Shown here: positions 5,529 through 47,969 of the stretch, one piece after another
Layout: each line of letters starts with the position of its first letter
How positions within the stretch are numbered: position 1 is the first letter of the stretch
Notes under the pieces: generated by a model
The model's database searches: none
Told to the model about the DNA's origin: nothing
What the model saw: the letters and a program-made list of their open reading frames with translations, nothing else
Virus record (IMG/VR): IMGVR_UViG_3300017722_002988
Span: 67,760-131,759 of that record
Source of the DNA: a virus
Taxonomy: Duplodnaviria > Heunggongvirae > Uroviricota > Caudoviricetes
Length of the DNA stretch: 64,000 bases
Direction: 5' to 3' (one strand)
Made by a program: the position numbers and the translations under genes

Positions 5529-6392
5529 ATGTCATTTGAACTAACCGTCCAACGCGAAGACCTGAAGAAGCAAAAACTCTTCATCGCCACTCCAATGTAT
5601 GGTGGCATGTGTGCCGGCATGTATTGCAGATCCATCGCCGACCTGAGCGCCCTCTGCACTGCGTACGGCATTTCCCTCCAGATCTACTACCTCTTCAATG
5701 AGAGCCTGATCACCAGGGGCCGGAACTACTGCGTCGATGAATTCCTACGTTCTGGCGCCGACCATTTGATGTTCATTGACGCTGACATCGGCTTCGATCC
5801 GAAAGACGTCATCGCCCTCATGGCCATGCAGATGTCTGATCCTGCGAAGTACAACATTGTCTGCGGTCCTTATCCTAAGAAGTCCATCTCTTGGGAGAAG
5901 ATCAAGCTGGCCGTGGATAAGGGCTTTGCCGATGAAAACCCTAACGACCTCGACAAGTTCGTTGGTGATTACGTCTTCAACCCAAAGGGCGGAACGCAGT
6001 CTATCTCCCTTGGCGAACCAGCTGAAGTTATGGAAGCCGGCACCGGCTTCATGATGATTCACAAGGACGTGTTCCCTAAATATCGGGAAGCATATCCTGA
6101 GCTGAGCTACAAGCCGGACCACGTTCGCTCTGAGCATTTCGACGGCACCAGAGAAATCCACGCCTACTTCGACTGCATCATCGATCCTGATACCAGACGG
6201 TACCTCTCTGAGGACTACATGTTCTGCTATAACGTCAACAAGATGGGTGGTCACATCTGGCTCTGCCCATGGATGAGACTGCAACATGTCGGGACCATGA
6301 TCTTCGGCGGCTCTCTTGCTGATCTTGCGTCAATCGGTGCATCCGCCACAGCGGATCCGAAGGCGATCACGAAAAACAAGAGAAATCAATAA
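5529..6392 (+). CDS. putative glycosyltransferase (GT-A fold, DxD)
   Basis: IATPMYGG...NESLITRGRN...HLMFIDADIGF resembles a GT2-like DxD region; the assignment is tentative. Confidence 0.4.
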   Translation: MSFELTVQREDLKKQKLFIATPMYGGMCAGMYCRSIADLSALCTAYGISLQIYYLFNESLITRGRNYCVDEFLRSGADHLMFIDADIGFDPKDVIALMAMQMSDPAKYNIVCGPYPKKSISWEKIKLAVDKGFADENPNDLDKFVGDYVFNPKGGTQSISLGEPAEVMEAGTGFMMIHKDVFPKYREAYPELSYKPDHVRSEHFDGTREIHAYFDCIIDPDTRRYLSEDYMFCYNVNKMGGHIWLCPWMRLQHVGTMIFGGSLADLASIGASATADPKAITKNKRNQ

Positions 6393-7122: not shown

Positions 7123-7152
7123 GACTACCTTTTATCATGGAGCTATTTCATA

Positions 7153-26667: not shown

Positions 26668-27297
26668 ATGCAAACACTCTGTCAATTCTGCGATAAAAGC
26701 TCTAGTAACCCTGGGGCATTAGCAAAACATCAAAAACACTGTAAAAACAATCCCGGCTACGTTAAGGCTTTTAGGAGTCCTAGAGCTGGGGCAAAAAAGG
26801 GTAGTACTCCTTGGAATAAAGGGAAATCTGGAGTTTACTCTTCTACAACCCTTGACAAAATGCGATCTTCTGGAGGACACCTTCATACCGAAGAGACCAA
26901 AAACAAGTTAAGTGTCATCGCTAAAAATAGCGGCCTCGGCGGATATACAAAAAATGGAGGTCGAGGCAAAAAAGGATATTTCAAAGGTATATGGTGTGAT
27001 AGCTCGTGGGAACTGGCCTATGTCATTTTCAATCTTGATCATGGGCATAAGATAGAGAAAAACTCTAAAGGCTTTCCTTACGAGCATGAAGGAAAAACAA
27101 AGAATTATATACCGGATTTTGTTTTAGAAGATGGCACATACGTAGAAATCAAAGGTTATTCTACTGAACAATGGCTACACAAGCAACACCACTTCAGTTA
27201 TCCATTGGTTACGCTATATAAAAGCGATATGAATACATACCTTTCTTATGTTATCGAAAAATACGGAAAGAATTTCATAGATCTTTACGAGAAATAA
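26668..27297 (+). CDS. putative homing endonuclease (Zn finger, NUMOD3-like, PD-(D/E)xK-like)
   Basis: CQFCDK...HQKHC finger shared with the HNH ORF; HTEETKNKLS NUMOD3-like repeat; IPDFVLEDGTYVEIKG. Confidence 0.5.
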   Translation: MQTLCQFCDKSSSNPGALAKHQKHCKNNPGYVKAFRSPRAGAKKGSTPWNKGKSGVYSSTTLDKMRSSGGHLHTEETKNKLSVIAKNSGLGGYTKNGGRGKKGYFKGIWCDSSWELAYVIFNLDHGHKIEKNSKGFPYEHEGKTKNYIPDFVLEDGTYVEIKGYSTEQWLHKQHHFSYPLVTLYKSDMNTYLSYVIEKYGKNFIDLYEK

Positions 27298-28742: not shown

Positions 28743-28936
28743 CCATAAGTTTGGAGTTACTCAGGAAGGGTGTCGCGACCTCTGAGAATAGTCTTAGACA
28801 ATGTTGGGTGCAACACCAACCTCCGAAGCCAATCATAGAGCTGCACCATGGTGGTGGCTAGCGTCTCATAAGCGCTAAGGTCGGGATCGTTACCCGATGG
28901 CTCTTCTCTAAAAAGTTCTGAGAAAATGCATTTTAG

Positions 28937-28976
28937 CTGTGTACATAATAACCAGCCAGTGTATATTGGGAGAATG
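28937..28976 (+). promoter_or_regulatory. phage promoter motif
   Basis: GTGTACATAATAA, then TATATTGGGAGAATGAG. Confidence 0.5.
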
Positions 28977-29047
28977 AGTTGAGCATCTAATGTTCCTCCT
29001 CTTCCACGGCAGCCCATCGGGTTGACGGCTTAGGATGAGACTGCCCT

Positions 29048-29077
29048 GGCAGACGGCTTGATAATAGTCTGCCACCA
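29048..29077 (+). ncRNA. acceptor-like mini-helix with encoded ACCA (GGCAGAC, 12-nt loop, GTCTGCC-ACCA)
   Basis: Perfect 7-bp stem followed by ACCA, then the AAGTTTAC spacer. Confidence 0.4.
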
Positions 29078-29085
29078 AAGTTTAC

Positions 29086-29160
29086 GGAGATGTCGTCTAA
29101 GACCGAGGACACCAGCGTAGAGCTGGAAATGGGGGTATCGAAATCCACCCTTCTCCACCA
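29086..29160 (+). ncRNA. degenerate tRNA-Glu-like unit with encoded CCA
   Basis: Acceptor GGAGATG/CTTCTCC; Glu-type D-arm TCGTCTAAGACCGAGGACACC; 5-nt-loop hairpin in place of the anticodon arm; GGTATCGAAATCC in place of the T-arm. Confidence 0.45.
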
Positions 29161-29168
29161 AAGTTTAC

Positions 29169-29242
29169 GGGCGGGTCGTCTAACATTTAGGACACCGGCA
29201 TTTGAGCCGGCAATGGTAGTGAAAATCTGCCCCCGCCCACCA
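29169..29242 (+). ncRNA. degenerate tRNA-Glu-like unit with encoded CCA
   Basis: Perfect acceptor GGGCGGG/CCCGCCC; D-arm TCGTCTAACATTTAGGACACC; preceded by the same AAGTTTAC spacer. Confidence 0.45.
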
Positions 29243-29450
29243 AATCAGCGATAGAGCCGGTTCGAGTCCGGCCCTGGGGTCAGCCCCGGGACTCTACTGG
29301 AGAGATGTGGCTGCTAGGAGCTAACCTAGAGGGAGTAACTGAGACAACCCTCGAACTGTTGGACTGCTGGAAAATCCGATAACCGCCTTCTCAGGCTGTG
29401 CAGGACCAGAGAGTTAGCTTCGAAACTATTTGTTAGTTCTGATAAAATAG

Positions 29451-29490
29451 TTGTGTACATTAAATCAGAACTGCTTAGAATGAGAATATA
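29451..29490 (+). promoter_or_regulatory. phage promoter motif driving a non-coding region
   Basis: TTGTGTACAT, then CTGCTTAGAATGAGAATATAAG; no ORF follows. Confidence 0.5.
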
Positions 29491-30190
29491 AGATTGAGGC
29501 AGGGTGATGAACCCGTTAAGTCCTCCCAAGTTCGTGCTGCCGGGTTCGAAACCGCCAGTAAGAAGAAAGCGTCCTCCTGTAGGAACCCTCGAGGGAGATC
29601 GGGGTTGCGACTGTCGCAGGGAGGATGGGGTAAAAGTCCTCACGAGATCCCACCATTTCGCTCGAATGAGCAAACAAGATTGAATGAACGTGTGTGCGCA
29701 ACGGGCCACATGTAACCCTCGGTTGGGGTTCATTCATAAGATTGCCGTGTGCGGCAAAAGTCTGGGTAACCAGATGACAGGGAACGCCTCCCATAGGCCT
29801 CCCGACCTCTCCGGAGGGTAAAGCACACCGAACGGGCTACGAGAGGAGACTCTCGGCTTCATGTACCAATCATGGAGATACGTCCTAAGGATGGGAACTG
29901 AAAAGCCGGCCCCTAGCCGATGGTGGGGGGTTCTAACGGCAGGTCCGCAAGACCTAGGTTCACGCAAACCATTCTAAGACCGATGGCAAACGTTCAGAGG
30001 GTACCGCAAGTCCGAGGCCGCAACCAAGGGCAGGTATCATATCGATAGGAGACGGGCATACGGGCCGAAGGGTTCTGAGGAGACGTCATCTAGAAGATTT
30101 TTCGAGTAACTCGCAAGGTGAAAGGAATGAGTCGTGTTGCATTCTGTAGGGTAAAAGCCTTATGGAACAACTGGTCAAGCACGACTTGGT
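29491..30190 (+). ncRNA. large structured non-coding RNA candidate (about 700 nt) rich in C-GCAA-G hairpins
   Basis: No + strand ORF; recurrent CGCAAG GNRA-type hairpins (AGGTCCGCAAGACCT, CTCGCAAGGTG and others); promoter upstream. Confidence 0.4.
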
Positions 30191-30195
30191 GGGTT

Positions 30196-30267
30196 CCAAA
30201 CATAGCTCATTGGTAGAGCAATCGCATTGAACGCGATAGGCTGTGGGTTCGATCCCCACTGTTTATT
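30196..30267 (+). tRNA. tRNA with anticodon TGA (type I body); acceptor pairs only partially
   Basis: Canonical D-arm AGCTCATTGGTAGAGCA, arm ATCGC-ATTGAAC-GCGAT and T-arm GTGGGTTCGATCCCCAC. Confidence 0.5.
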
Positions 30268-30609
30268 TAAAAAAGCAAAGACTTGACCGAGAGTAAGTGT
30301 AAGAAGCCAAATGCCACAGCCGTAAGGTAATGTGGTCACTTGAAGCTCGCAAGGCGGACGGTGTTGATGTACGGAAGTTCGTAAGGGGTTAGCGCCCTTG
30401 AGTGGCTCGCAAGGTCAGCGGATGGAAAGATGTCGAGTAGCTTGCTCTGCATGTTGGATGGTCACCAACTCAAAAACGACTGGCTTTGATCGGATACCCT
30501 ATCATGTATATAGGTGTGGAGATCTAGGGAATATGCCGGGTCGCACTGGCAGAATAATCCTAGGAGACTGATCATTTAAGCGAGTAACTCTCATCGCTTT
30601 ACAAACGAT

Positions 30610-31167
30610 TTAGGCACCCTCGGGTGTCTTTTTTCGTATTTGGGGGCTAATTCCTCTAAGCTTCATAGTAGCTGAAATTTTAGCTTTACGTTCTTCAGAA
30701 AATGGTTTGCCAATCATCAGTTTTCTTGCTGCTGAGATCTTAGCCTTTGCCTCTTCACTCATTGGTTTGGTGTTGCGGCGTGGTTTGCCAGTTTTAGATT
30801 TAGAAATCTTGGCCTTTGTTTCTTCAGAATGTCTATACACTTTGAGTTGCTCCACAACATTTTGTTTCACCGATTCATAAAATTTGGAACCACGCAGAGT
30901 CATCATTTTGATTGCCCTAGTTTGGCTACCTCCATATGTTTTCCATAACAAAAGATGTGCCACATAGTGTTCGCGTGGTGTTAGATCAATTCGATTCCAT
31001 GGATGGTCATAAAAACTTCCGTATTCTGGAAAGAGATCCTTTGCTCTTGGGCAAATATGGTGCTTTTCAATTGGACCGCTCTTAGGGGTTCTTGTTTCTA
31101 TGAATTTCACATAGCGGGCGAGTTGTCGCCCGTCGTGTGGTTTAGTTCTAAGAATTTCAGCTATCAT
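30610..31167 (-). CDS. HNH-type homing endonuclease with NUMOD3 repeats
   Basis: HHICPRAKD...N...H core; triple SEE(T/A)KAKIS NUMOD3-like repeats. Confidence 0.6.
   Translation of the reverse strand: MIAEILRTKPHDGRQLARYVKFIETRTPKSGPIEKHHICPRAKDLFPEYGSFYDHPWNRIDLTPREHYVAHLLLWKTYGGSQTRAIKMMTLRGSKFYESVKQNVVEQLKVYRHSEETKAKISKSKTGKPRRNTKPMSEEAKAKISAARKLMIGKPFSEERKAKISATMKLRGISPQIRKKTPEGA
30613..30636. terminator. rho-independent terminator (GGCACCC-TCG-GGTGTC-TTTTTT)
   Basis: GC stem plus T-run at the end of the non-coding transcript, abutting the 3' end of the minus-strand endonuclease gene. Confidence 0.65.
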
Positions 31168-31303
31168 GGGAATCTCCTGAGATATTTATGTTCTTCTCAT
31201 CCCTAGGCGCCTTTTTTGTATGTACCTATTTAATGCTATGGCTTAAAGTGAGCCTACGGACGATCATGTCCGAATCACCAACTTCATTATGAGGATCCAT
31301 TTA

Positions 31304-32758
31304 ATGGACATTGCAACCATTCTCTTGCTCGCCGGTATCGCCCTTGGCGTTTTCGTCGCGCTTTGCCTGACGGTGTGGGTTATCACCAAACGACGGGTCG
31401 TTCCGACCAATATGACGCACATCGTGCAGCGAAAGAAGACCACCACTCTCTACGGACAAGGTCAAGTCGCCGGCAACGTTTACTACCACTGGCCAAAATG
31501 GATGCCGATCATCGGTATCGACGTTTCTGTCTTCCAAGGCTCAATCTTCGACGTGACGCTGAAAGACTATGAGGCATATGACGCAGGTCGACTGCCTTTC
31601 GTGGTTGACGTAAAGGCCTTCTTCCGAGTCGACGATGCTGATGTCGCTGCTAAGCGAGTCTCGACCTTCGAGGAGCTGAAAACCCAGCTGACCGCCGTCC
31701 TGCAAGGTTCGGTTCGTCGCATTCTGGCCACTAACGACCTCGAGACCATCATGCAAGACCGTTCCAAGCTGGGCGGCGAGTTCACTACCGAAGTGGATGA
31801 GCAGCTCAAGGAGTGGGGCGTGAAAACCGTCAAGTCTATCGAGTTCATGGATATCCGTGACTCCGGAGGCTCGAACGTCATCGACAACATCATGGCTAAA
31901 GAGAAGTCGCGTATCGACCGTGAATCTCGTGTGGCAGTTGCCGAGAACAACCGTGCTGCTGAGGAAAAGGAAATCGAGGCACGCCGTCAAGTCGAGCTTC
32001 AACGCCAAGACGCCGAACAACAAGTCGGCATTCGTACGGCTATGAAGGAACAAGTCGTGGGTCAAGCCGAGGAGCAATCCAAGCAAGAGATCTTGCTGCA
32101 GGCCAAGGTCACGACCGAACGCGACATGGACGTTAAGAAGGTGCAAGAGGTCCGTGCGGCCGACATCGCCAAGGACGTCGCCGTGGTTCGAGCCAATCAG
32201 GAAAAAGAGGTCCAGATCGTGGCCGCTAACGCTGCCAAGGAGCAGACCATCATCTCGGCTAACGCCACGAAGACGGAAACTGAGACCGTGGCTGCGGGTA
32301 ACCTGACGGCTGCCAAACTGTCCGCCGAAGGCACTCTCGCCACCGGTACGGCCGAAGCTGAGTCGCGCAAGCTGATGGAACTGGCACCCGTCCAAGCTCA
32401 GATCACGCTGGCTCAGGAGATCGGTGACAACGAAGGTTATCAGACCTACCTGCAAACCATCCGCCAGATCGAGGCCTCTCAGGCTGTCGGTATCGAACTG
32501 GCCGGCGCGATGGCCAAGGCCGACCTGAAGGTCATCGCCAACGCTGGAGACCCCCAATCGGGAGTCGCCAAGCTTGGTGACCTGTTCACCACGAGCGGAG
32601 GCACCGGGTTGACCGGAATGTTGACCGCTTTGTCTCAGACTCCTGAAGGCGCCGCTCTTGTGGAACGCGTTACCGGCAAGAAGGGCCCGACCCTGAATGC
32701 TGATGACATTGCTGAGGCAGTCATCGAAAAGGCAAGCGCCAAACGTCCTACCAAATAG
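31304..32758 (+). CDS. SPFH/band-7 (flotillin-like) membrane protein
   Basis: N-terminal transmembrane helix; SPFH core (VDVKAFFRV...LETIMQDR); long Ala/Glu/Gln-rich coiled coil; start chosen at the second ATG, which has an AGGA RBS. Confidence 0.7.
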   Translation: MDIATILLLAGIALGVFVALCLTVWVITKRRVVPTNMTHIVQRKKTTTLYGQGQVAGNVYYHWPKWMPIIGIDVSVFQGSIFDVTLKDYEAYDAGRLPFVVDVKAFFRVDDADVAAKRVSTFEELKTQLTAVLQGSVRRILATNDLETIMQDRSKLGGEFTTEVDEQLKEWGVKTVKSIEFMDIRDSGGSNVIDNIMAKEKSRIDRESRVAVAENNRAAEEKEIEARRQVELQRQDAEQQVGIRTAMKEQVVGQAEEQSKQEILLQAKVTTERDMDVKKVQEVRAADIAKDVAVVRANQEKEVQIVAANAAKEQTIISANATKTETETVAAGNLTAAKLSAEGTLATGTAEAESRKLMELAPVQAQITLAQEIGDNEGYQTYLQTIRQIEASQAVGIELAGAMAKADLKVIANAGDPQSGVAKLGDLFTTSGGTGLTGMLTALSQTPEGAALVERVTGKKGPTLNADDIAEAVIEKASAKRPTK

Positions 32759-33919: not shown

Positions 33920-34801
33920 ATGCTACTCCACACTCTAGAAAAGGACAAGTTGATCTCGCCGCCTCGTTGGCTGCCAGACAACACCGCCTATCTGACCGCC
34001 ATGGGCTCTGTTGCTTATGGCGTCAGCGGCGACATGTCCGACGTGGACATCTACGGATTCGCTATGCCTCCTAAGGATATGGTGTTCCCACATCTGGCCG
34101 GCCATATCCCTGGTTTCGGTCCTGCACCTCCGAAGTTCGAGTGCTGGGAGCAACACCACGTTCAGGATAAGAGCGGTAAGAAGGAATACGATTTCCAAGT
34201 CTTCTCCATAGTTCGGTTCTTCCACCTTCTGGTCGAGAACAACCCGAACATGACTGACTCGCTCTTCACTCCGGATCGTTGCGTTCTGCATCAGACTCGA
34301 GTGGCTCAGCTGGTCCGTGAGAACCGGAAGCTGTTCCTGCATAAGGGTGCCTACCACAAGTTCCGTGGGTACGCCTATCAGCAACTCAAGAAGGTTCAGG
34401 CAAAGACGCCTTCCAATCCGAAGCGTCAAGCTCTGGTCGATGCCTATGGCTACGACACCAAGTTCGCCTACCACATCGTTCGCCTAGCGCTCGAGTGCGA
34501 GGAGATCTTGACTCAGGGTAATCTGACTCTGGACGCGAACGTGGCGGTTCTGAAGGCTGTCCGTGAAGGACAGTGGACTTTGGAGCGGCTTGAGCAGTGG
34601 TTCGAAGGTAAGGAACTGCAACTCGAGCAGGCCAAGATGGACTCTAAGCTTCCAGAAGGTCCGAACTATGACGTGATCAAAGTGCTGCTCTTGCAGTGCC
34701 TGGAACAACACTACGGCGATCTGTCCAAGGCCGTTGCCAAGGATAACGGTGGCCAAAATGTCATCAACGAGGTCCAGGCTGTTCTGGATAGATATAGGTA
34801 G
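33920..34801 (+). CDS. Pol-beta-superfamily nucleotidyltransferase
   Basis: GSVAYGVSGDMSDVDIYG is a GS...D(x)D nucleotidyltransferase motif. Confidence 0.6.
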   Translation: MLLHTLEKDKLISPPRWLPDNTAYLTAMGSVAYGVSGDMSDVDIYGFAMPPKDMVFPHLAGHIPGFGPAPPKFECWEQHHVQDKSGKKEYDFQVFSIVRFFHLLVENNPNMTDSLFTPDRCVLHQTRVAQLVRENRKLFLHKGAYHKFRGYAYQQLKKVQAKTPSNPKRQALVDAYGYDTKFAYHIVRLALECEEILTQGNLTLDANVAVLKAVREGQWTLERLEQWFEGKELQLEQAKMDSKLPEGPNYDVIKVLLLQCLEQHYGDLSKAVAKDNGGQNVINEVQAVLDRYR

Positions 34802-41810: not shown

Positions 41811-41850
41811 TGTACACATATTTCAGACAGTGTATATTGGTAATGAGAGT
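41811..41850 (+). promoter_or_regulatory. phage promoter motif driving a single tRNA
   Basis: TGTACACATATTT, then TGTATATTGGTAATGAGAG directly 5' of the tRNA. Confidence 0.5.
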
Positions 41851-41853
41851 TAC

Positions 41854-41925
41854 GCACCTATGGCCTAATGGTTAAGGCAGGGGTCTCTAAAACCTTGAAT
41901 CCGGGTTCGAGCCCCGGTAGGTGCA
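41854..41925 (+). tRNA. tRNA with anticodon CTA (amber-reading, suppressor-type)
   Basis: Perfect acceptor GCACCTA/TAGGTGC; D-arm GCCTAATGGTTAAGGC; arm GGGGT-CTCTAAA-ACCTT; T-arm CCGGGTTCGAGCCCCGG; CCA. Confidence 0.6.
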
Positions 41926-42181
41926 CCAAGTTTCAGTTTTCCCCTCAAGAGGGGAGATGGAGACCACAAAGGAGAGTGCTATCATGGACTAATCTGACTC
42001 TGTAGAGATAGAATGATTTTTGATAGATAAAGTTTAATTGGTAAGAACACCGTCCTCGAGACGAAAAGGAAAAAGATATGCATTCGTAGAATCGCTGTCA
42101 ACATGACCCTCCGTGATGTAAAGATCACATTACACTAAGACCACTTATGGTAACACCATCTTTACATTACGGAGACGTCAA

Positions 42182-44822: not shown

Positions 44823-44895
44823 GGACCCATCGTCTAACAGCCTAGGATGACTGCCCCTCAAGCAGTAGATGCCGGTGCGACTCCGGTTGGGTCTT
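44823..44895 (+). tRNA. tRNA-Glu(CTC)
   Basis: Glu-type D-arm GTCTAACAGCCTAGGATG; arm ACTGC-CCCTCAA-GCAGT; T-arm GCCGG-TGCGACT-CCGGT. Confidence 0.55.
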
Positions 44896-47297: not shown

Positions 47298-47373
47298 GCG
47301 TCCGTATCGGAACCGCCTTCTAAGCGGTAGTACCGTAAGTGGAACGATGGGGGTTCGAGTCCCTCCGGGCGCG
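47298..47373 (+). tRNA. tRNA-like (anticodon TCT) lacking a D-arm, with a long variable region
   Basis: Acceptor GCGTCCG/CGGGCGC; arm ACCGC-CTTCTAA-GCGGT; T-arm GGGGGTTCGAGTCCCTC; only about 5 nt between the acceptor and anticodon stems. Confidence 0.4.
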
Positions 47374-47472: not shown

Positions 47473-47542
47473 CCAGCCGTAGTGTAGGTTTGCACGGCAC
47501 CCATTTGGGGGTGTTAGACTAGGTTCAACTCCTAGCGGCCGG
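47473..47542 (+). tRNA. tRNA-like with a 6-nt anticodon loop
   Basis: Acceptor CCAGCCG/CGGCCGG; CACCC-ATTTGG-GGGTG; T-arm CTAGGTTCAACTCCTAG; CCA. Confidence 0.35.
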
Positions 47543-47741
47543 ACCAAGACCCGTCCTAAGGATTCTGTGGGACGTTAAATCACTAGGAATCGGGCTTTCT
47601 CTCCTTTGCCTTAAGAAAGGAGACTGGAATCAGCCTAGAAGAGCTGGTCGAAGTCCCGTAATGTGGCACCGCCTCCGTCCGGGCGACCCTCGCAAAGGGT
47701 TAAGAGATCGGCATGGTAACCGAAATCAGGCTTCCAATTTA

Positions 47742-47825
47742 GGACGCGTCACCTCAGCAGCGAGAGGCCGGGCCTTTTAAGCCCACGGAGAAATCCCATC
47801 GGGGGTGCGAGTCCCTCCGCGTTCA
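47742..47825 (+). tRNA. type-II-shaped tRNA with Lys anticodon TTT
   Basis: Acceptor GGACGCG/CGCGTTC; CTTTTAA loop; variable arm GGAGAAATCC (GAAA tetraloop); T-arm GGGGG-TGCGAGT-CCCTC. Confidence 0.45.
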
Positions 47826-47969
47826 CCAAATTTGATGCGGACCACCTCGGACGTGGTTGCCAAGTCTGGCCAGACGGTAGAAGCCCTCGGCCGAGGGCGG
47901 ACACTTATAAAGTGATTTGGGTAGGTGGTTCGAATCCGCCCACTTTGATGGCAACGCATCAACTCATTC

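Follow-up and report, generated by a model that had tools for sequence, protein, structure and literature searches.

What kind of RNA is made from the roughly 1.1 kb between a predicted promoter and a predicted terminator in the transfer RNA (tRNA) island of IMG/VR virus record IMGVR_UViG_3300017722_002988? The locus lies within positions 67,760 to 131,759 of that record, a stretch of 64,000 nucleotides that we call the window and to which all coordinates refer. An initial annotation, made from the letters alone, had described a large structured non-coding RNA running from promoter to terminator, with repeated C-GCAA-G hairpins and an embedded tRNA, and had considered a group I or group II intron remnant, a ribozyme or a regulatory RNA. 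We find that window 29489–30636 on the plus strand is a new example of a known RNA class, GOLLD, which makes this an annotation rather than a discovery. GOLLD RNAs are giant structured non-coding RNAs of phages, and those with solved structures are RNA-only homo-oligomeric cages (PMC12286853). They are among the largest non-coding RNAs of bacteria and phages, their cage structure was solved in 2025, and no catalytic activity is known for them.

The identification comes from a covariance-model scan against Rfam, a check that the initial annotation had itself suggested, and it supplies the family name that was missing there. Using cmscan and Rfam 15, we found that GOLLD RNA (RF02032) matches 30129–30597 on the plus strand with 173.5 bits, above the gathering score of 150 (E = 5e-47), and that the alignment takes in model positions 1–416 of 416. 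This is the sole non-tRNA match above the gathering score in the whole window. Because it spans the full model and exceeds the curated threshold, we regard the GOLLD identity as settled, bearing in mind that RF02032 models the conserved 3' half of GOLLD only. A permissive scan (E ≤ 1) of 28900–30700 on both strands returned only GOLLD, two tRNA matches and poplar-1, the last at 16.6 bits against a gathering score of 110.5 and thus at chance level. Group I and group II introns, RNase P, transfer-messenger RNA (tmRNA), 6S RNA and ROOL gave no match in that scan, and none at the gathering threshold in the whole window; the failure to recognise RNase P, tmRNA or 6S RNA by eye was therefore correct, and the suggestion of an intron remnant falls away. 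What had favoured a degenerate intron, another known ribozyme or a housekeeping RNA was only the size of the region and its many GNRA-like loops, features that large structured RNAs have in general. Apart from having no Rfam counterpart, such an element is at odds with a unit that interrupts no gene and stands alone with its own promoter and terminator, as do its relatives, and as far as sequence analysis can tell we consider its probability negligible.

Relatives were sought by blastn against GenBank phages and by pattern scans of IMG/VR, using the first hairpin of the 3' domain and then the 5' region. With blastn we found 18 records of Caulobacter phiCbK-like phages, 71% identical over 30054–30440 and with an annotated tRNA under each match. 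The hairpin pattern led to GOLLD loci with linker tRNAs in L005, L011, L016, L013 (Karma) and L014, and a full GOLLD was present in five of the 15 viral contigs from this first scan. Two near-identical metagenomic relatives, L017 (Ga0181351_1000338) and L018 (Ga0181350_1016404), were retrieved with the 5' region pattern. Two other contigs from pattern scanning, L019 and L020, were taken as chance hits: Rfam matches at E ≤ 0.001 are lacking in both, and a weak profile match (E = 0.0013) is confined to L020.

On our overall reading, which we consider very likely to be right, the locus encodes a GOLLD RNA in the tRNA island of an uncultivated T4-like phage, with its own promoter and terminator, a 5' extension, a 5' core, a 3' domain and a tRNA-like cloverleaf in the linker, and with assembly into a cage predicted by homology. 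The features are the following.

29454–29481, plus strand: promoter TGTACA-N16-TAGAAT, sigma-70-like by consensus scan, with a predicted transcript start near 29488–29491.
29489–29745, plus strand: lineage-specific 5' extension of the GOLLD transcript, assigned by promoter position.
29746–30128, plus strand: structured core of the 5' domain, 383 nt, alignable to L017, L011, phiCbK, Karma and L005.
30129–30597, plus strand: GOLLD 3' domain, the universally conserved half (the RF02032 match).
30196–30267, plus strand: tRNA-like cloverleaf of 72 nt in the variable linker (J13/15), anticodon UGA, called by ARAGORN and by Rfam (tRNA, 54.3 bits).
30289–30298, plus strand: 5' strand of a 10-nt long-range pairing (GAGAGUAAGU), a pseudoknot in the Rfam model.
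30440–30449, plus strand: 3' strand of the same pairing (GCUUGCUCUG), from the cmscan alignment.
30612–30636, plus strand: intrinsic terminator, a 7-bp hairpin at 30612–30629 followed by a T run to about 30636.

The initial annotation had placed the promoter near 29451 and the terminator at 30613–30636, and both signals are present, at 29454–29481 and 30612–30636. Its starting point of 29243 has to be abandoned, lying about 245 nt upstream of the transcript start, inside a different unit with odd tRNA-like genes. The promoter belongs to a recurrent set. The motif GTGTAC(A/T)-N15–17-TAnA(A/T)T occurs ten times on the plus strand of the window (3079, 6397, 11716, 23535, 27418, 28940, 29454, 35456, 41811 and 47097) and once on the minus strand (11692), compared with a chance expectation, by our own estimate for equal base frequencies, of about 0.2 per strand. 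The majority of the copies (23535, 27418, 28940, 35456, 41811 and 47097) stand ahead of tRNA clusters, and the motif is probably the phage's own promoter class for RNA genes. The promoter in L018 is identical to that in the window, and in L017 it reads TGTACT-N16-TAGAAT. The sequence AGATTGAGG (29491) stands 9 nt past the −10 element in both the window and L017, and homology to L017 resumes there.

At the 3' end, the window and L017 cease to be homologous at 30599 and are homologous again from 31206. A terminator-like hairpin occupies the matching position in both L017 and L011, in each case with a sequence unrelated to that of the window, and in L017 a T run follows as well. The layout recurs independently in L011 (promoter at 7143–7116, GOLLD 3' end at 6074, terminator at 6059–6038), where it would give an RNA of about 1.07 kb. 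Based on the positions of promoter and terminator, their conservation in L017 and L018 and the layout of L011, the predicted transcription unit is approximately 29489–30636, or about 1.15 kb, with an RNA proper of about 1.1 kb, in agreement with the size first proposed. This is long for the family, in which the env-38 RNA has 833 nt and that of Streptococcus agalactiae 700 nt. The G+C content of the region is 51.8% against 50.4% for the whole window, so that the earlier description of it as GC-rich does not hold.

Conservation within the 3' domain is extreme, as 30275–30575 (301 nt) is 100% identical in the window and L017. Where stems do differ between the two, double compensatory changes are seen: GGTC/GACC is replaced by GACC/GGTC in the hairpin at 29943–29953, ACT/GT by GTC/AC at 30109–30119, and C30581G is accompanied by G30596C. 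Invariance over 301 nt together with double compensatory changes in stems, relative to the 95%-identical L017, points to selection on RNA structure. In the cmscan alignment, 9 of the 10 pairs of the long-range pairing between 30289–30298 and 30440–30449 are intact, and at the aligned positions phiCbK has another sequence with just one non-standard pair flagged. A pairing of L20 with J13/15, found by covariation, forms an intermolecular bridge in the 14-mer (Kretsch et al., PMC12286853). Judging from the text of that paper, the pseudoknot of the Rfam model probably corresponds to this intermolecular kissing bridge (B7).

The published Stockholm alignment of GOLLD covers the 3' domain only and is of no use for the 5' domain. 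For the 5' core (29746–30128) we used our own relatives, in an RNAalifold analysis with homologs of the kind that the initial annotation had advised. The set comprised six sequences from four lineages, whose alignment also served to derive the structure. Among 88 predicted pairs, 45 show compensatory changes in which both sides have changed, compared with 7–16 in controls with partners slid by 1–3 columns. Likewise, 91.6% of the cells are paired, against 34–48% in the slid controls, and none of 500 column shuffles reached the observed values. A profile of the core gave weak matches just upstream of GOLLD 3' domains in Roseobacter phage DSS3P8 (E = 4e-8) and Mesorhizobium phage Cp1R7A-A1 (E = 5e-7), the latter with an annotated tRNA in its GOLLD linker, and with nhmmer no match in Vibrio phage PG07, Mycobacterium phage PegLeg or env-38. 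The covariation argues that the 5' core is a genuine structured domain. To date, domains of this type have been detected in metagenomic contigs and alphaproteobacterial phages only; such a distribution fits the published lower conservation of GOLLD 5' regions (PMC12286853). The original proposal of a large structured non-coding RNA is upheld.

The repeated C-GCAA-G hairpins of the initial annotation survive in part. Of the hexamer CGCAAG, 5 copies lie in 29491–30600 and 21 elsewhere on the plus strand (62.9 kb), by our own calculation an enrichment of approximately 13-fold (Poisson P about 5e-5). The hairpin at 29942–29956, the only one that was compared across relatives, is however a CGCAA pentaloop on a covarying stem and not a strict GNRA tetraloop. 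When only strict GNRA tetraloops on stems of 4 bp or more were searched for, just two turned up in the region, not above shuffles; since this search misses the CGCAA pentaloop, the hexamer count is the valid test.

Several points weigh against our reading of the locus as a complete, cage-forming GOLLD RNA. By nhmmer, no sequence similarity was detectable between the 5' core and the 5' domain of env-38, and a MAFFT alignment of the two was unreliable (the env-38 copy used had 815 nt, not 833 nt); as a result, cap architecture and stoichiometry cannot be transferred with confidence. Folding energies are unimpressive: z-scores of the minimum free energy lie at −1.1 to −1.9 in the 5' extension, at −0.5 in the 5' core and at −1.9 in the 3' domain. 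They are, however, equally weak for the proven 3' domain and thus non-discriminating. The boundaries of the transcript are predictions from sequence. Lastly, the 5' extension has no covariation support, and open reading frames of 59 and 73 amino acids within it stay formally possible as genes, with just five informative substitutions to judge them by.

This last point bears on whether 29489–29745 is part of the RNA at all. The segment might be a separate element, be it a leader, a small RNA or a co-transcribed mRNA for a protein of 59–73 amino acids, with only 29746–30597 being GOLLD. Such a division would account for the fact that the segment cannot be aligned to L011, phiCbK or L005, and for its modest fold z-score. 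The initial annotation had seen no plausible plus-strand open reading frame here, yet some frames do exist: the longest are one of 73 amino acids starting with TTG (29494–29715) and one of 59 amino acids starting with GTG (29504–29683), the latter with GAGG read about 5 nt upstream of its start, and both frames are open in L017. Nevertheless, PHROGs gave no match for the three longest internal frames (two on the plus strand, one on the minus strand). The initial annotation had named a conserved coding frame as the finding that would speak against a non-coding RNA, but the substitutions relative to the relatives show no sign of coding constraint in either frame: four of five change the amino acid in the GTG frame, in which both relatives have ACG in place of the in-frame ATG at 29507, and two of five do so in the TTG frame, which would start at transcript position +4 without a ribosome-binding site. 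In L017 the C-termini of both frames are altered by a replacement of 29682–29728. On the minus strand, an open reading frame of 135 amino acids (29326–29733) has no Pfam match, and L017 has none of similar length there. The promoter position and the presence in L011 of about 150 nt between promoter and 5' core both suggest that the extension belongs to the RNA, and GOLLD 5' regions are known to be variable (PMC12286853). We consider a separate element quite improbable, and the extension, although it is the part of the unit that we are least sure of, is best read as a lineage-specific part of the GOLLD transcript.

The extension is also where the window and its closest relatives differ in architecture. 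Identity is 96% to L017 over 29491–29681 and about 94% to L018 over the overlapping 29000–29900. In L017 a 115-nt insert (L017 9353–9238) follows the first AGATTGAGG, flanked by a 9-nt direct repeat of AGATTGAGG, and about 236 nt take the place of the 47 nt at 29682–29728. The heptamer AAGATTG occurs three times within 250 nt of the window's extension (29490, 29676 and 29738), at the borders of the segments that differ in L017; the repeats may mark sites of recombination or insertion, or may form a structural motif.

The other variable part is the tRNA-like element. The initial annotation had reported an embedded tRNA at 30196–30267, and ARAGORN and Rfam do call one there, with D, anticodon and T arms present. 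Mismatches at the two outermost acceptor pairs, 1:72 (C/T) and 2:71 (C/A), lead us to call it no more than tRNA-like. The element falls in unpaired linker columns of RF02032, after the first long hairpin of the 3' domain, and a tRNA-like element occupies the corresponding linker site in every relative examined, with an imperfect acceptor stem in all five relatives in which ARAGORN detected it. Relative to L017, 19 of its 72 positions differ, between flanks that are identical over 67 nt upstream (30129–30195) and over the 301 nt downstream mentioned above. The changes in its stems are compensatory (C30206T with G30218A in the D stem, and GTGGG/CCCAC to ACGGG/CCCGT in the T stem), and the anticodon loop changes from ATTGAAC (UGA) in the window to CTCTTAA (CUU) in L017. 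Across six lineages we find six anticodons: UGA in the window, CUU in L017, UCC in phiCbK, and UCU, UUG and GCA in the others. A recent copy of another tRNA of the island was ruled out as the origin of the element, the best identity being 67%.

Could the transcript then be mainly a tRNA precursor, with the GOLLD scaffold storing and delivering a functional tRNA that is freed from the linker by RNase P and RNase Z? The cloverleaf scores well and is kept intact by compensation in its D and T stems, it recurs in all relatives examined, GOLLD and the tRNA operons have a promoter type in common, and "inhibited storage" has been raised as an idea for the Mycolicibacterium GOLLD (PMC12990946). A functional tRNA is difficult to reconcile, however, with mismatches at 1:72 and 2:71 in L017 as well as in the window and with imperfect acceptor stems throughout the relatives. 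The UGA anticodon would mean a tRNA-Ser, yet the long variable arm that bacterial seryl-tRNA synthetase needs is absent, and CCA is not encoded. Six different anticodons in six lineages indicate that no particular decoding need is served. Moreover, many GOLLD RNAs, including env-38, do without a linker tRNA, and in Mycobacterium a pseudo-tRNA inside GOLLD was not detectably expressed as a separate RNA (PMC6582537). We find the precursor explanation unlikely and retain the view that the cloverleaf is a linker element of a GOLLD RNA.

A more speculative proposal, to which we give little credence, is that the linker element is a fast-evolving or exchangeable cassette, neither a decoding tRNA nor a passive spacer; the cage would show or hide 10–14 tRNA mimics, with the anticodon loop tracking a host factor, and the modular, AAGATTG-bounded 5' extension would tune the geometry of the cap. 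If so, the cassette might act as a decoy or sponge that occupies anticodon nucleases or other defences directed at tRNA, or might be a caged reserve of tRNA that is freed when the cage opens. Whatever its role, the near-identical pair of window and L017 offers a clean contrast between a frozen 3' ring domain, compensating hairpin stems, and a changing linker cassette and 5' extension. The contrast suggests which parts are structurally constrained and which may be adaptive, and is useful for designing deletions and swaps in tractable relatives such as phiCbK in Caulobacter. Only two features go beyond what is ordinary for GOLLD, the sharp divergence of the linker cassette and the modularity of the 5' extension, and these may merit follow-up.

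How does the locus compare with known systems? The phiCbK-like phages (Shapirovirus; JX100813.1 102288–102774) match RF02032 as the window does, with 165–171 bits (165.3 for phiCbK), and are listed in the published GOLLD alignment (Kretsch et al., 2025). They share with the window the type of 5' core with its covarying helices, a tRNA-like element that occupies the same site in the linker and has an imperfect acceptor stem, and the location of GOLLD in the tRNA region of a large phage genome. The window nevertheless comes from a different phage with a T4-like DNA polymerase, has the anticodon UGA rather than UCC, and has an HNH homing endonuclease gene immediately downstream, unlike phiCbK. 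Its 5' extension is also longer, as phiCbK has at most about 125 nt upstream of the core, bounded by a permuted tmRNA on the other strand. This tmRNA (RF04321, 71.4 bits; 1748–2066 of L001, phiCbK JX100813.1), opposite in strand to GOLLD and directly upstream of it, is unannotated in the part of the record examined, and the same arrangement is seen in Karma (L013).

L017 is about 95% identical over the GOLLD gene and has the same promoter motif, terminator position and gene order in the tRNA island. Beyond the insert and the replacement in its extension and its diverged CUU cassette, it has another terminator sequence and no downstream homing endonuclease. L018, which ends at about window position 29900, likewise has the promoter motif and the gene order of the tRNA island. 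With env-38 (PDB 9MEE, 833 nt, a D7 14-mer) and the S. agalactiae GOLLD (PDB 9L0R, 700 nt, a 12-mer) the window shares the 3' domain family, the two-domain layout, a variable linker past the first hairpin of the 3' domain and the 10-nt long-range complementarity. The window RNA has about 1.1 kb and a tRNA-like element in its linker, whereas the linker of env-38 is 42 nt long and disordered. The GOLLDs of Mycobacterium tRNA arrays (Behra 2019; Morgado 2020 via PMC12990946; PMC6582537) resemble the window in their large tRNA array, a nearby HNH endonuclease and an internal pseudo-tRNA or tRNA, but lie on bacterial chromosomes or in prophage-derived arrays rather than in a T4-like phage genome. 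ROOL RNA (RF03087) is another large ornate RNA associated with phages and tRNAs that forms RNA-only cages; it is unrelated to the window's GOLLD in sequence and secondary structure, and Rfam has no ROOL match in the window.

The family membership, the domain layout, the covariation and the conservation of promoter and terminator are results of the present analysis, and for what the RNA does after transcription we turned to the published structures. GOLLD cages are known as a 14-mer for env-38 and a 12-mer for S. agalactiae (PMC12286853; PMC12990946). In env-38, residues 1–420 form the 5' domain and 421–833 the 3' domain, and a disordered linker (497–538) extends into the cage (PMC12286853); stoichiometry is set at 10, 12 or 14 by the 5' domain (PMC12990946). 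The linker faces the cavity and in some cases holds a tRNA (PMC12286853; PMC12990946, the latter for the Mycolicibacterium GOLLD). The window's RNA would be transcribed from its own phage-type promoter, with the motif of the neighbouring tRNA clusters, and would end at the intrinsic terminator. It would then fold without protein and most likely assemble, given its homology with the two GOLLDs solved by cryo-electron microscopy, into a dihedral homo-oligomeric cage of 10–14 copies. The 3' domains would form the rings and the 5' domains the caps that set the copy number, and the linker with its tRNA-like cloverleaf may face the cavity. Our best guess at the role, prompted by the promoter type common to GOLLD and the tRNA operons, is that of a phage RNA compartment or scaffold that is co-expressed with phage tRNAs and acts on tRNA or translation during infection. 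GOLLD expression is reported to rise in lytic phage growth (cited in PMC12286853).

The source is an uncultivated T4-like phage, as indicated by the similarity of its DNA polymerase: the enzyme, of 851 amino acids, shares about 44% identity with its counterparts in Sinorhizobium phiM12-like phages and cyanomyoviruses. By megablast, window 1–24000 has no match to any GenBank phage. The locus thus adds a well-delimited GOLLD, with promoter, terminator and a length of about 1.1 kb, from a T4-like lineage without a nucleotide match in the GenBank phage set searched. Its surroundings are typical of GOLLD, as a phage tRNA array with an adjacent HNH homing endonuclease is also what is seen in mycobacterial tRNA arrays (PMC6582537). 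The immediate downstream neighbour is the following.

30610–31167, minus strand: HNH/NUMOD3 homing endonuclease gene, immediately downstream of GOLLD, its stop codon overlapping the GOLLD terminator.

The gap in homology to L017 between 30599 and 31206 indicates that this gene is a mobile insertion relative to L017. A weaker NUMOD3 or endonuclease I-like open reading frame is found at 26668–27297.

ARAGORN finds 38 tRNAs at 23.7–48 kb of the window. Rfam adds matches that ARAGORN missed at 44823–44895, 47298–47373 and 47742–47825 (all plus strand), so that the island holds more than 40 tRNA-type genes. Upstream of the GOLLD promoter lie two odd tRNA-like units, at 29085–29155 and 29169–29239 (plus strand), each preceded by CCACCAAAGTTTACGG; a promoter of their own stands upstream at 28940. 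L017 has the first unit in identical form, and in L018 another sequence replaces it. The second is conserved in both relatives. Rfam gives it 41 bits as a tRNA, ARAGORN reports it as "tRNA-??? (tt)" at a lowered threshold only, and by our own reading its anticodon loop has 6 nt (ATTTGA) and its T loop (TGAAAAT) is unusual. A similar "tRNA-??? (tt)" is found at 47473–47546. Just downstream of the two units, a 33-nt segment (29247–29279, plus strand) that includes a perfect T-arm-like hairpin (GCCGGTTCGAGTCCGGC) is shared by the window and L018 but missing in L017, and may be a tRNA fragment.

Two further tRNAs of the island have unusual anticodons. One, at 41854–41928 (plus strand; promoter copy at 41811), has the anticodon CUA ("Pyl" in ARAGORN; Rfam tRNA, 65.4 bits) and is a well-formed tRNA of the amber-suppressor type. 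We saw no sign of TAG recoding by this tRNA, as TAG ends 24 of 63 long stop-to-stop frames. The other, at 47874–47947 (plus strand), is called by ARAGORN as a tRNA-Tyr with the anticodon AUA. The island also contains protein genes, among them one for a Band 7/SPFH-domain protein (31289–32758, plus strand) and one for a homologue of RlaP, an RNA repair pathway nucleotidyltransferase (33920–34801, plus strand), which may be related to tRNA repair.

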